Assembly (NCBI RefSeq): GCF_022846255.1
Contig: NZ_AP025682.1
Length of the DNA stretch: 64,000 nucleotides
Source: Escherichia coli
GTDB lineage: Bacteria; Pseudomonadota; Gammaproteobacteria; Enterobacterales; Enterobacteriaceae
Reading direction: 5' to 3' (one strand)
Shown here: one piece after another, positions 46,025 to 63,037 of the stretch
How the letters are laid out: each line of letters begins with the position of its first letter
Position numbering within the stretch: position 1 is the stretch's first letter
Notes under the pieces: model-generated
What the model was told of the DNA's origin: nothing
What the model saw: the letters and a program-made list of their open reading frames with translations, nothing else
Database searches by the model: none
Program-made: the position numbers and the translations under genes

Positions 46025-49000
46025 TCACGGGGCGCGGTACACACCTAACCAGGGGTGATAACGCCAGTCATCGACCACATCTTCTTCACTGACGGGTACT
46101 CTCACCTCAGCAAACTTTTCCCCAACGCTTGCTATCTCACAACCTTGCTTATCAGCTAAATTCAACAAAACGTGTTGGTAATCCATCACGCCCCAGCAAG
46201 CGACACCGCTGGCGCATCTCACCTCTTCTCGCCTGAAATTCCCTTGCGCTTTACGCTCGTTGTCGCCCGTACGGGAATAGAAACGCGCTTCGCTTTCTTC
46301 ATCATCCATATGCAGAAAAAATACCGCCTCCGGCAAAGGGGAATAACGAAATGGCGTCTGGCGCTGTATCCAGCCGTTCCAGCTTAGCGGTGCACGCCAC
46401 CATTGCGCCGCCACCACATGTTTGCTTTTACTGCTCATCAATTCGGCGGATAAACGACTATGTTCTAGCTCCGCCAGTTTGTTGGCATTATTGGCAGACA
46501 GGATCCGCGGCAAGGCGTTAATCGTCCGGTAGTCCGCGATCGGAATCAGTTCGCAAATATCGTGGCTATTCAGCAAGTGTTCTTTTGTTTCGAAACCAGG
46601 CTTACAAAATGCGGGGGCTTTTTTCTGCAATGATTTGATATTGCTACGCAAAATAACCAGATTCTCACTGGTCGGCACATTTCTACGGTGGCGCTGAATA
46701 CGTCCGGCAAATTGAATTATCGAACGCATGGAGCTTGGTTCGATAATTCCCCAATCCGCATCCCAGTCACGCCCCACTTCTATAACCGATGTCCCCAACA
46801 CCACAAACAGATGGTGCGATTCCGGACGGTTATGTAAGGCATCTGCGATATCTTCGTTGTTCCAGAAATCGAGTTCGTTATGACGGGTAAAAGCGCGGTC
46901 CAGTCGCTTCTCAATATCTGAACGCACCGCCAGCGGGTGTCGGGAGTGGTAAACACAATAATGAATACAAACATTTTCTGGTGAAGGAATGGCAATCAGG
47001 GCTTTGGTCACTGCAACCAGTGGATTGATATTCGCGAAGCGCACCAGGCCCAGCGAAACGGTTTTACCGCTTTCGTGTAGCTGGCGATGCGCCTGATGCA
47101 ACTTCAGCATTTGCGTATGCACCGTCTGGGCCACACTTTCGGTAACATCCTGGATTGCAACTGATGCAGATGAAATCGAAGCAACACGCCCGAAATGCAG
47201 CCGCTCTTTTTCAGCCAGCATTACCGCCCGCCTGGCAACAAATTTTGTATGCGCATCGCGAAAGGCCGCTCCATCGCTAATTTGCGTGGCATCAGCATCG
47301 TTTTCGTCAAACCAGGCACAGCAAATATTGACGGGCCTGCCGTTGGTACCACAAGACGCCTGCCACATTTTACGCCCGGCAAGATAAGCCGCGAACAGCG
47401 CCTGAATCAGGCCTGGCGGAAGCGTCGCCGAAGAGAGTAACACCCGCGTTCCCAGCATCCCGGCCCAGTTCATCAAACGACATACCGCATGAAGATCAGC
47501 AATATCAAAGTCGTCGGGTTCGTCGAGCACTAAATCGCTGGTTAACAGACGCAACATCGCCGGAAGCTGTTTCCCGCCACGCACACCCTCGGTCGCGGAA
47601 ATAAGATGATCAATTGTCGCGACCAGAATCGGCGCGCTCACTAACGCCTTAAGTTTGCTGTCATCCTTCAACCATTTTTCCAGCGCCCCGGTATGCAGGC
47701 TGCCTTCGTACTTAACGAACTGTTGCTCCTCTGCCGGCGACTCTTGCGAGGCACTTCCACAATCATTGTCTATTTTTTCCTGCTGCCAGAGCTGTTTAAC
47801 TGCCGCCGAACCAATTAATACCGCCAGCTCATCCTCACCGAGTCCAAGTCGACTACGCAGAGCATCGCCGGTTTGCAAAGTCAGCGTACGCAATCCCAGC
47901 GCGACGGTAAAACGGCACCCTTCCCGCTCATCGGCAAGCGCATACATAATGCGGGCGTTCGCAAAGGTTTTACCGCACCCCGTCGAGGCCATATTAACGC
48001 CGAAAAATCCCTCCTCCCGGCTTCGTTCACGTAACGCTCGCGCCACATCCGAGGCTTTATCCTGCCAGCGATATTTCGCATCTGTAGCTCGCTGGCTAAA
48101 ACCTTTATGTCGGGCAATTGCCGGAAGAGAAGCCCGTGTGCGCATCAGCTGCCGCCCAAGCAAAAACGCATGATGTGCGACGCCGACCAGGTGCTCGTCC
48201 ACCCGTTGTTTGAGTGCGCCACTTTGCCTATCGCTATTTGCCCAGACGATATAATCCGGCTCCTGCCATTTTTGCTGCGCATCGCTTGAGGAATAGTAAT
48301 GATCGGCAAGCATCAGGCAAAAACGCGCCATATGTGAGGGGAACAACTGTTCCATCAGCCCGTATGTCTTTAAACCGAGCGCGTTACTTGCCCGGCGGGA
48401 AATCTGATGTGCTTTTTCTCGCCAGCTAGCACTCTGAAGCGGTGTTCCAGCCGGAAATTGCCAGACGTGCGCAAAATCCTGTTGTAACCAGTCATCTCTG
48501 CGGTGGTTAACGGCATTCCAGTCAGCATTAAGTTGCCTTTCCAGCCAACTTTCACACCCTTTGCAAGATTGTTCCGGTTGTGGCGAAAGATTCTCCGGAA
48601 TTCGATGATGGGAAAGGATCAGCCAACCTACCGTTTTGGCTAGCGGTTGCAGCGAAGTAAATGGGCTATCTGAAAATTGAGGCGTGTCTTTTAGCAGGCG
48701 TTCCAGAATCGCAGATTCATCATCTGCCGTAAGTTCGCCAAGCTTCGCCAGCCACACATCGTCGGGCCGATCACCGACAAACGCCTGAAAGAGCCGCAGT
48801 GAGATCCATTCATGTCGGTATGGTTGATAACTGCGGGCATTCTTTTGGGTCAGGCTTTGCTGAAAGCTGCGTCCGGATTTTCCAAAATCATGAAATAACC
48901 CGGCGATGGCTGCCAGCAGCGCAATGCTTTCCGCACATTGCCAGCGGTTTTCTTCCTTGTTCACCAGGCTGGTTTGCGTTGTGCGATTTGTGGGAACGCG

Positions 49001-54664: not shown

Positions 54665-54697
54665 CTCTTCTGTCTCATTGTGTACATCCTAAAGGCA

Positions 54698-54730
54698 AAA
54701 TGCCAGCCCGATCGGCTGGCATTTTTATCC
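54698..54730. terminator. Bidirectional terminator between cspD and macB
   Basis: aaatgccagcc-cgat-cggctggcattttt hairpin. Confidence 0.7.
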
Positions 54731-60984: not shown

Positions 60985-61680
60985 ATGTTCAGAAAATTAG
61001 CAGCTGAATGTTTTGGTACTTTCTGGCTTGTTTTTGGTGGCTGTGGTAGTGCCGTACTGGCCGCAGGCTTCCCGGAATTAGGCATTGGTTTTGCCGGCGT
61101 GGCGCTGGCATTCGGTCTGACCGTTCTGACGATGGCCTTTGCTGTTGGTCATATTTCTGGTGGTCATTTTAACCCGGCGGTCACTATTGGTTTATGGGCT
61201 GGCGGACGTTTCCCGGCAAAAGAAGTCGTTGGCTACGTAATTGCCCAGGTTGTCGGCGGTATTGTTGCGGCGGCGCTGCTGTATTTAATTGCCAGTGGTA
61301 AAACGGGTTTTGACGCGGCAGCCAGCGGTTTTGCTTCTAACGGTTATGGCGAGCATTCGCCAGGCGGTTATTCCATGCTTTCCGCGCTGGTAGTTGAACT
61401 GGTATTGAGTGCAGGTTTCCTGCTGGTGATCCACGGCGCAACCGACAAATTCGCTCCTGCTGGTTTTGCGCCGATCGCTATTGGTCTGGCCTTAACCCTG
61501 ATTCACTTAATCAGTATTCCGGTGACTAACACTTCTGTTAACCCGGCGCGCAGCACCGCGGTTGCTATCTTCCAGGGCGGCTGGGCGTTAGAACAACTGT
61601 GGTTCTTCTGGGTGGTGCCAATTGTCGGCGGTATTATCGGTGGTCTGATTTACCGGACCCTGCTGGAAAAACGTAATTAA
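60985..61680 (+). CDS. aqpZ: Aquaporin Z
   Basis: ORF 60979..61680; start at [19 protein letters not shown]; two NPA motifs (NPAV, NPAR). Confidence 0.96.
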
Positions 61681-62137
61681 TTAGCATTGGCATTTTATCT
61701 GCCCTGGTTGTTTTATCTTCGACGTTACAAACCGCACGGGTGTTGGTGGCGTCAAAATCGCTGAAGCGTTCCCCGAAGGCCGGGGCAGCCCACATGGATG
61801 TGGGCTGAGGGCGCGTCTTACAGGGACGTTACCTCGCGCCCGACCCGGTAGCCGAAGGGGATAAGCTGAAGGTACCGCGCAGCGGCGATTTTGTTCGCCA
61901 GAGCCCGGGGGTGCAGGGGGCGGCGGCGACTGGCCGCCCCCTGCGCGCTCCCTGCGCCAGTGGCTTTATATGGCATTGCACATGAAAGGAGCGCAACAAT
62001 GCTAAACACTCATATAGAATTAAAAATCCCCCTCTGATGCATAACATTTCCTTTTAATTGCAACTTTACTCGTCCTTCCGCTTTCAGTAGTGTGTCATCG
62101 CGCATTTCGACTTCATCTTTGCAAGGACTGGGTTTTC

Positions 62138-63037
62138 ATGTTTTCTGGGCTGTTAATCATTCTGGTTCCCCTGATTTTGGGTTACCTCATTCCGCTTCGC
62201 CAAAAAGCTGCATTAAAAGTTATTAATCAGCTATTAAGTTGGATGGTTTACCTCATTCTCTTTTTTATGGGTATCAGTCTGGCGTTTCTCGATAACCTCG
62301 CCAGTAACCTGTTGGCGATTCTGCATTATTCTGCTGTCAGTATTACCGTTATTTTACTGTGTAATATTGCCGCCCTGATGTGGCTGGAGCGCGGTCTGCC
62401 GTGGCGCAACTACCACCAGCAAGAAAAACTCCCATCGCGTATTGCGATGGCGCTGGAGTCGCTAAAACTGTGCGGCGTAGTAGTGATTGGTTTTGCCATT
62501 GGCCTGAGTGGACTGGCTTTCTTACAACACGCGACCGAAGCCAGTGAATACACCTTAATTCTGCTACTTTTCCTCGTCGGTATTCAGTTGCGCAATAATG
62601 GCATGACCTTAAAGCAGATTGTCCTTAATCGCCGGGGAATGATTGTCGCCGTGGTGGTGGTTGCCAGTTCATTAATTGGTGGTTTAATTAACGCCTTTAT
62701 TCTTGATCTTCCCATCAATACCGCGCTGGCAATGGCCTCCGGTTTCGGCTGGTATTCTCTTTCCGGTATTTTATTGACCGAATCTTTTGGTCCTGTAATC
62801 GGGAGCGCGGCGTTTTTTAATGATCTGGCCCGTGAGCTGATTGCTATTATGTTAATCCCTGGGCTGATTCGCCGTAGCCGCTCTACTGCACTGGGCTTAT
62901 GCGGTGCGACGTCGATGGATTTCACCCTGCCCGTTCTTCAACGTACAGGCGGGCTGGATATGGTCCCGGCGGCGATTGTTCACGGTTTTATTCTTAGTCT
63001 GTTAGTGCCGATTCTCATCGCCTTTTTCTCTGCATAA
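62138..63037 (+). CDS. lysO: Lysine exporter LysO (YbjE)
   Basis: ORF 62090..63037; start at MFSGLLIILVPLILGYL (299 aa), polytopic membrane protein. Confidence 0.88.
   Translation: MFSGLLIILVPLILGYLIPLRQKAALKVINQLLSWMVYLILFFMGISLAFLDNLASNLLAILHYSAVSITVILLCNIAALMWLERGLPWRNYHQQEKLPSRIAMALESLKLCGVVVIGFAIGLSGLAFLQHATEASEYTLILLLFLVGIQLRNNGMTLKQIVLNRRGMIVAVVVVASSLIGGLINAFILDLPINTALAMASGFGWYSLSGILLTESFGPVIGSAAFFNDLARELIAIMLIPGLIRRSRSTALGLCGATSMDFTLPVLQRTGGLDMVPAAIVHGFILSLLVPILIAFFSA

Follow-up and report, generated by a model that had tools for sequence, protein, structure and literature searches.

Introduction

The TRIP1 repeats of Escherichia coli, first listed by Rudd (1999) and later surveyed by Li et al. 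(2024, Genes 15:236; PMC10888264), have also been studied as "replication risk sequences" (RRS) by Pham, Wood, Dunbar, Cox, and Goodman (Pham et al., NAR 2023 and 2024; bioRxiv 2026), who themselves equate the two, TRIP1a being RRS-lysO and TRIP1c being RRS-dusC. Here, we analyze a GC-rich structured element in the intergenic region between aqpZ and lysO (ybjE) of an E. coli genome (NCBI RefSeq assembly GCF_022846255.1, contig NZ_AP025682.1), within a stretch of 64,000 nucleotides that we refer to as the window. Judged by its sequence and position, the segment at positions 61725–61999 of the window is the aqpZ–lysO copy of the TRIP1 repeat, that is, TRIP1a or RRS-lysO. The element, its name, and its DNA-level role are already known and are not new. 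Taken as a whole, the locus is very probably best explained as TRIP1a/RRS-lysO acting through the published replication-gap mechanism, which comes from K-12 experiments only, with the element here in inverted orientation.

The survey by Li et al. distinguishes TRIP1a between aqpZ and ybjE (MG1655 915016–915281), TRIP1b between putP and ycdN, which carries a 125-bp internal deletion, TRIP1c between yohI and yohG, TRIP1d between alx and sstT, and TRIP1e between copA and ybaP (PMC10888264). The repeats are 62–65% GC, have a predicted "double-Y" RNA fold, and participate in large chromosomal inversions. The a and c loci are each known in both orientations; for TRIP1a, 1255 reverse and 3448 forward copies were counted (PMC10888264).

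The two RRS copies of MG1655 flank dif at a distance of ≈650 kb each, and at both the G-rich strand is the lagging-strand template (Pham et al.). In vitro, this strand is a block to Pol I, Pol II, and Pol IV, and it lowers Pol III synthesis in M13; in vivo, each RRS gives rise to a peak of RecA and SSB on single-stranded DNA that extends ≈2 kb along the lagging strand wherever the element is placed (Pham et al.). Engineered strains with an inverted RRS have no RecA or SSB peak in vivo (Pham et al.). With the C-rich strand as the lagging-strand template, ≈66% of encounters are blocked in vitro. A single RRS can be deleted, but both can be removed only with a compensating 200-kb amplification or in the presence of extra or inverted copies, and when both are lost or inverted, supercoiling is altered genome wide (Pham et al.).

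In the published mechanism, established in K-12, unwinding of the duplex at the fork allows the G-rich strand to adopt a very stable fold, a G-quadruplex (G4) at GGGGGTGCAGGGGGCGGCGG together with extensive hairpins. As the lagging-strand template, the folded strand blocks DNA polymerase, and the blocked Okazaki fragment leaves a gap, up to ≈2 kb long, onto which SSB and RecA load. At least one of the K-12 RRS copies is conditionally essential, and genome-wide supercoiling shifts on their removal. The pilE G4 of Neisseria gonorrhoeae is cited by the RRS authors as the only precedent (Pham et al.); it too is a bacterial G-quadruplex that folds in replication to produce a gap or nick, with a programmed effect, but sequence, organism, and effect differ, antigenic variation in one case and a role in topology or termination in the other.

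Results

Extent and sequence identity of the element

A preliminary description of the window, made from its letters, had pointed to an unusually GC-rich structured stretch at 61740–61990. The element is real and discrete, holding the GC maximum of the window and folding better than shuffled sequence, and its limits, set by homology among copies, are slightly wider than those reported. Over its 275 bp it has 64.7% GC, as against 39.9% in the remaining aqpZ–lysO intergenic sequence, and 100-bp windows reach 0.65–0.72 over 61750–61999 versus 0.28–0.45 in both flanks. The 250-bp GC peak of the whole 64 kb, 0.676, starts at 61715, and the 47 windows of this size with GC ≥0.66 all start within 61699–61749. 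The earlier figure of roughly 70% GC was thus a fair estimate, if slightly high. The element begins 44 bp past the aqpZ stop codon, ends 138 bp before the lysO start codon, and is in sense orientation with respect to both genes.

The window copy aligns without gaps over 275 bp, at 91.6% identity, to MG1655 915009–915283 (L005 5010–5284) in the same intergenic region, with the element inverted. Its identity to other copies is ≈91 to 92% for K-12 TRIP1c, 93.8% for Ecol_867 TRIP1c, 91.8% for TRIP1d, and 89.9% for the copy of E. albertii. The published G4-forming 20-mer has an exact match, and the coordinates of the 222-bp RRS core, as defined in PMC11194060, could be transferred from the K-12 locus through the gapless match (Table 1). 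A megablast search with the intergenic region, the search for other genomic copies that the preliminary description had proposed, found the 275-bp core in 5425 of 5426 complete E. coli genomes, at 1–9 places per genome (median 4), while the whole window-type intergenic region is common to only 895 of the 5426. Other copies lie between yohP and dusC, putP and efeU, and alx and sstT.

Table 1. Features of the aqpZ–lysO region in window coordinates
Feature	Position	Strand	Description and basis
TRIP1a repeat, full copy	61725..61999	+ (G-rich strand)	275 bp; first letters TTACAAACCGCACGG, last letters CATGAAAGGAGCGCAACAA; BLAST and alignment to other copies
RRS-lysO core equivalent	61741..61962	+	Published 222-bp core; MG1655 915025–915246, 168–389 bp upstream of lysO
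G-quadruplex 20-mer GGGGGTGCAGGGGGCGGCGG	61907..61926	+ only, none on −	Exact string match; motif from PMC11194060
5′ domain	61752..61893	+	Outer stem CAAAATCGCTGAAGCG/CGCAGCGGCGATTTTG round a junction with two hairpins; TwoAYGGAY-like; inverted repeat, covarying helices 2–8
Hairpin 1	61786..61807	+	CAGCCCACA-UGGA-UGUGGGCUG; perfect 10-bp palindrome (61786–61795 / 61798–61807)
Hairpin 1 loop motif ACATGGATGT	61792–61801	+	Fits CsrA/RsmE consensus (A/U)CANGGANG(U/A)
Hairpin 2	61809..61841	+	GGGCGCG...CGCGCCC; loop motif ACAGGGACGT at 61820–61829; minimum-free-energy and consensus structure
Hairpin 3	61913..61944	+	GCAGGGGGCGGC (61913–61924) / GCCGCCCCCTGC (61933–61944), perfect 12 bp, 8-nt loop GGCGACTG
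3′ helix	61945..61994	+	GCGCTCC (61945–61951) pairs with GGAGCGC (61988–61994) round a variable AT-rich insert; minimum-free-energy structure
aqpZ	60985..61680	+	Upstream flanking gene; open reading frame list, RefSeq annotation of near-identical loci
lysO (ybjE)	62138..63037	+	Downstream flanking gene; open reading frame list, RefSeq annotation

Compared with the TRIP1 repeats as described, the element agrees in sequence, in its aqpZ–ybjE locus, in a GC content of 62–65%, in the double-Y fold, and in belonging to the "reverse direction" class of TRIP1a. The differences are not essential: around the reverse allele the flanking sequence is unrelated to that of K-12, and it lacks the terminator hairpin that follows aqpZ in K-12. 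With RRS-lysO and RRS-dusC, it shares the equivalent of the 222-bp core, the exact G4 20-mer, and the lysO locus, but its G4 strand is the leading-strand template, as in the engineered "inverted RRS" strains and unlike wild-type K-12. The preliminary description had named identification as a known repetitive element as the result that would speak against its own reading, and that is what was found, in the form of TRIP1a/RRS-lysO. A literal text search of the literature for CCACATGGATGTGGG found no paper.

The statement that the stretch does not resemble REP or BIME elements held up. With the REP consensus palindrome (GCCKGATGCGRCGY..., up to 2 mismatches), 7 sites were found in the 64-kb window and none in 61681–62137, and there is no REP annotation at the K-12 equivalents of the element. 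One exact REP-consensus match stands elsewhere in the window, at 23876 (23876–23889). Like REP/BIME sequences, the element is GC-rich, palindromic, dispersed between genes, mostly downstream of them, and able to affect DNA topology; it differs in being a multi-helix unit of ≈275 bp instead of ≈35 bp, in having a handful of copies instead of hundreds, and in lacking the REP consensus.

An inverted natural allele

Relative to aqpZ and lysO, the window element lies on the opposite strand from that of K-12, where it is antisense to both genes. Over the whole window, the GC skew on the G4 strand is −0.05, and each of the eight 8-kb blocks is negative; on the G4 strand of K-12 dusC, which served as a control, it is +0.035, with all blocks positive. 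Because the skew on the window G4 strand is negative, this strand is the leading-strand template, and the C-rich, weaker strand faces lagging-strand synthesis. Given that the engineered inversions have no RecA or SSB peak and that the C-rich strand blocks ≈66% of encounters, the window allele is expected to be a less efficient trigger of gaps than that of K-12. It would nevertheless supply whatever function makes at least one RRS indispensable.

The inverted RRS of the window is a common natural allele, though in the rarer of the two orientations. The K-12-type dusC arrangement is present in 3311 of 5426 genomes. In O157:H7, both the lysO copy (L256) and the dusC copy (L255/L257) are flipped relative to K-12, and in Ecol_867, the dusC copy is flipped and the window-type lysO allele is absent. 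(The dusC loci of Ecol_867 and ET650 are those that we label L002 and L003.) With both RRS of O157:H7 flipped and the window allele present in 895 of the 5426 genomes, the orientation rule of K-12 is no requirement. A G4 on the lagging-strand template is a trait of the K-12 arrangement and not of the sequence family, for which Li et al. report both directions. In the searchable literature, we found no link between the TRIP1 orientation survey and the RRS orientation model. O157:H7, with both copies inverted, is the natural counterpart of the engineered "double-inverted" strain, and natural inverted alleles of this kind are a test of whether a lagging-template G4 is the selected configuration.

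Flipped copies from the two loci are 93–94% alike, as compared with 87–92% between a flipped allele and its K-12-type counterpart at one locus, and the flanks of flipped and forward alleles are unrelated. In the window allele, the flanks of 44 and 37 nt resemble those of K-12 in neither direction, which rules out a simple local inversion as the source of the flipped allele. One or two large inversions between TRIP1a and TRIP1c were also considered; by reasoning, such events cannot flip the element in place.

The flanks differ as well in what follows aqpZ. In K-12, the gene is followed by a canonical hairpin and T-run (AGAAGGCCTGGCGTAATGTCAGGCCTTTTTTT; L005 5285–5352), whereas in the window the 44 nt after the aqpZ stop codon (61681–61724) hold no terminator-like hairpin and lead directly into the element in sense orientation. 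A consensus scan of 61500–62300 found no site resembling an intrinsic terminator. Because no terminator-like hairpin follows aqpZ in this allele, transcripts of aqpZ in the window strain may read into the RRS.

Fold and covariation

The + strand, folded as RNA, has a free energy of −149.7 kcal/mol (z = −5.85), and the − strand has one of −131.7 kcal/mol (z = −4.19); with DNA parameters, the z-scores are −5.84 and −4.94, respectively. None of 200 dinucleotide shuffles was as stable in any of the four cases. The 11-bp perfect stem of the preliminary description is present and actually extends to 12 bp, forming hairpin 3, and of the other palindromes it mentioned, a second perfect one, of 10 bp, forms hairpin 1 (Table 1). 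Only five loci in the 64-kb window hold perfect hairpins of at least 11 bp with loops of 3–20 nt. The four others are at 14029–14058, 14072–14107, 46714–46749, and 54697–54725, two of them adjacent near 14.0 kb.

We aligned 41 enterobacterial copies, mutually <97% identical, from E. coli, E. albertii, Klebsiella, and 120 metagenome contigs, and evaluated them with RNAalifold and an explicit pair count. Of the cells counted, 85.7% are paired, compared with ≈40% when partners are slid, and 30 pairs are changed on both sides versus 13–15 in the slid controls. None of 500 shuffles reached the observed proportion of paired cells, either count of double changes, or the covariation score; 76 of 500 did so for the count of further standard pair types. 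Most helices are supported by covariation, and the structure is under selection.

The individual helices bear this out. In the stem of hairpin 1, double changes from AU to GC occur in 13 of the 41 copies, from CG to GC in 6, and again from AU to GC in 6. Hairpin 3, whose 5′ arm overlaps the G4 motif and which has no U-tract after it, shows compensatory changes from GGCGGC/GCCGCC to GGAGGA/TCCTCC and from GTGCAG/CTGCGC to GTACAG/CTGTGC (helices 9–10), and in a diverged subfamily reads TGTTAAGGGGGC/GCCCCCTTAACA. Pairing in the 3′ helix (helix 11) reaches 97.8%, and 5 of the 41 copies have double changes there (CG to UA, CG to AU). The stem that encloses the TwoAYGGAY-like 5′ domain is likewise present and covarying.

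Whether the fold belongs to one strand was judged from G-U versus A-C mismatches. With the structure derived from the + strand, the counts are 330 and 123 cells, a comparison biased by the origin of the structure; on pairs common to the minimum-free-energy structures of both strands, they are 94 and 59 cells (8 versus 7 pairs). We dropped the strand assignment based on the excess of 330 over 123, the structure having come from the + strand.

Protein-coding roles were rejected. Four open reading frames of 48–72 amino acids overlap the element, have no Pfam match at E ≤1, and vary among homologous copies by 1–2-nt indels, in agreement with the initial impression that they are spurious. A leader peptide at the 3′ end, suggested by a Shine–Dalgarno-like AAAGGAG followed by ATG, was also discarded, AAAGGAG being the 3′ strand of the covarying GCGCTCC/GGAGCGC helix. 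The mini open reading frames that follow this motif are unlike between copies (MLNTHIELKIPL*, MMNQHITTS*, and MRD*), none is present in TRIP1d or TRIP1b, and the ATG itself is missing in TRIP1b, TRIP1d, and strain 04-00955.

Discussion

Several observations weigh against reading the window element through the K-12 replication mechanism. That mechanism rests on K-12 experiments, and the gaps are known from MG1655 only. Orientation on the lagging-strand template is not conserved, since natural alleles occur both ways at both loci, up to the double flip of O157:H7, and ≈33 family loci have no orientation bias relative to the local GC skew. The exact G4 20-mer is found in only 10 of the 41 diverse copies and a canonical motif of four G3 runs in 1 of 41. 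Furthermore, the C-arm covaries with the G-arm and the loop of hairpin 2 is conserved in sequence, neither of which a simple roadblock model demands.

Selection may act on the whole multi-helix fold and not mainly on a lagging-strand G4, with the 5′ half being a module of the TwoAYGGAY class that carries two CsrA-type CANGGANG loops. The element would then be, or descend from, a CsrA-binding RNA family dispersed as a repeat in Enterobacteriaceae, with multi-copy look-alikes across Gammaproteobacteria, a proposal that we consider unlikely. Stated as a rival to the replication mechanism, the selected function would lie at the RNA level, in a structured RNA of ≈270 nt that is TwoAYGGAY-class or a descendant and whose loops are putative CsrA/RsmE sites; we consider this unlikely. 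On the same reading, and just as unlikely, the window allele would be transcribed in sense as an aqpZ 3′ untranslated region or a lysO 5′ leader, and the element would be a ligand of CsrA or under its control.

Both loops fit the CsrA/RsmE consensus (A/U)CANGGANG(U/A) established by in vitro selection and nuclear magnetic resonance work. TwoAYGGAY (Rfam RF01731; Weinberg et al. 2010) belongs to the CsrB clan and is a proposed CsrA binder, which speaks for the RNA-level reading, and it is the top Rfam match, at full length and with both loops in register, of the window copy (27.6 bits, E = 0.071), TRIP1d (33.1 bits), and the E. albertii copy (36.9 bits). All of these scores are, however, under the gathering score of 43, and the Klebsiella copies have no match; a genuine member, from a Psychromonas metagenome-assembled genome (MAG; L010), reaches 68.4 bits. 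The Rfam scan proposed in the preliminary description found no family in the window region at gathering thresholds, its only matches being TwoAYGGAY below threshold and chance microRNA matches on the GC hairpin.

The likeness to TwoAYGGAY consists of an outer stem round two adjacent hairpins with GGA loops (AUGGAU and AGGGAC) and a covariance-model alignment over the full length. Loop 1, AUGGAU, fits the form AYGGAY; loop 2, which is AGGGAC, AAGGAC, or ACGGAC, keeps GGA but not the Y, so that the second loop is ARGGAY or ACGGAC instead of AYGGAY. The model has no counterpart of the additional 3′ half of the TRIP1 element, which contains the G-rich hairpin 3 and helix 4. Similarly, the element shares with RNAs of the CsrB/CsrC/McaS type GGA motifs in hairpin loops that fit the consensus, the two loop GGAs being ≈26 nt apart, but its CsrC score is 8.6 bits versus a gathering score of 61, and it has only 2–4 GGA sites, no known promoter or terminator, and no support from crosslinking and immunoprecipitation (CLIP).

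Conservation within the alignment bears on the CsrA proposal in both directions. Loop 2, which lies outside the scan pattern, reads CA-N-GGA in all 41 copies, with N free to vary as in the CsrA consensus, and two more GGA motifs are conserved, GGRATAAG in 38 of 41 copies and a 3′ motif of the GGAGCGC type in 40 of 41. The invariance of loop 1, by contrast, follows from the scan pattern itself. Structured RNAs typically have several covarying helices and conserved loops, as this element does, and in the window allele no terminator stands between aqpZ and the element. Against a transcribed RNA, a consensus scan of four alleles found no sigma-70-like promoter or intrinsic terminator flanking the element, copies in tandem intergenic regions have no sense bias (4 versus 5), and the fair form of the G-U versus A-C strand test does not single out a strand. 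In gene-level tables of CsrA CLIP, ybjE and dusC are unbound, the tables listing genes and not intergenic peaks (Potts et al. 2017). The small RNA suggested at the outset keeps the covarying stems, the sub-threshold TwoAYGGAY match, and the CsrA-type loops in its favor and lacks a promoter and a CsrA CLIP signal; as an account of an RNA-level function, it stays improbable. TwoAYGGAY has been treated as RNA and RRS studied solely as DNA, and the covarying fold, the CsrA-type loop 2, and the near-threshold score connect two literatures that do not cite one another.

The element could instead be a dispersed, structured repeat of the REP or MITE kind with no host function, its fold maintained to serve its own spread or through gene conversion and its effect on replication incidental to its stability; we regard this as quite improbable. 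The behavior of the family fits such a repeat in many ways. Copy number varies, from the 1–9 places per E. coli genome found with the flanked query to as many as 10 when only the element is searched, and Klebsiella has up to 13; the 10 copies are in one E. coli record and the 13 in Klebsiella pneumoniae CP125156.1. There are at least 5 E. coli loci and ≈33 locus clusters in enterobacterial metagenome contigs. Copies lie mostly between convergent genes and almost never in divergent regions, as REP and MITE elements do, and both orientations occur at one locus with unrelated flanks. Tandem arrays exist, as in a human-gut metagenome contig (L138 1851–3500) with three Klebsiella-type copies ≈650 bp apart. 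Two copies 340 bp apart are found on another contig (L144 597–967).

Internal deletions between short direct repeats also recur. The same 125-bp deletion, which lies between the direct repeats GTTCCCCGAAGGCCGGGG and GTTCGCCAGAGCCCGGGG, arose independently at the lysO locus of strain 04-00955 (L001 1545–1683) and in K-12 TRIP1b (L130 2356–2498), and takes out exactly the TwoAYGGAY-like 5′ domain, leaving hairpin 3 and the G-run. The 3′ arm of hairpin 3 is short by 11–22 nt in L154, L136, L198, and strain 04-00955.

On the other side, neither terminal inverted repeats nor target-site duplications are visible at the ends of the element, no associated transposase was seen, and a phage collection searched by distant blastn held no copies. 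Matches labeled as plasmids were all typed as non-mobilizable. They include the chromosome-sized PLSDB records CP125156.1 (5.37 Mb), NZ_OL790696.1 (4.80 Mb), NZ_CP141089.1 (4.94 Mb), and NZ_CP134663.1 (4.90 Mb); because we take these 4.8–5.4-Mb records to be mislabeled chromosomes, the "plasmid" copies are not evidence of mobility. A repeat with no function would also fit poorly with the K-12 double deletion, reported as viable only with a compensating 200-kb amplification, and with the symmetry of the K-12 pair around dif. Overall, the family behaves in a way consistent with a dispersed REP-like repeat, two copies of which either gained a chromosomal role or bring one to light. None of the three preliminary suggestions, a small RNA, a decayed mobile remnant, or a regulatory structure for lysO, is the account given in the literature, which is of a DNA-level element of replication and topology; the idea of a repeated element was right in spirit.

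A cis-regulatory structure for the neighboring genes, as a lysO leader or as an aqpZ terminator or mRNA stabilizer, is very improbable: the element's position close to and in sense with both genes and its very stable hairpin would suit such a role, but the same element stands beside unrelated neighbors at putP–efeU, dusC–yohP, alx–sstT, copA–ybaP, and many Klebsiella loci, is antisense to lysO and aqpZ in K-12, and has no U-tract after hairpin 3. The initially proposed lysO-specific regulator is thus unlikely, since the element occurs at at least 4 other loci and in both orientations.

Elements with a similar pair of loops are found outside the family. A scan of contigs for the CsrA-type loop ACATGGATGT followed after 10–40 nt by ACARGGAYGT gave at least 120 loci. 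Those listed are almost all from Gammaproteobacteria, including Shewanella, Marinobacter, Lysobacter, Arenimonas, Stenotrophomonas, Pseudoxanthomonas, and Acinetobacter, often with many copies per genome. One MAG (VYCF01, L029–L041) has at least 13 two-loop copies; others include L084–L088, L091–L096, L017/L018, L026–L028, L053/L054, and L063–L066. The elements have a conserved two-hairpin core, and the sequence of their outer stem is copy-specific yet perfectly complementary. Among the two-loop matches listed, only the Psychromonas element attains the Rfam threshold for TwoAYGGAY, the others scoring 25–35 bits. Some of the two-loop elements have sub-threshold matches to Ysr224 on the opposite strand.

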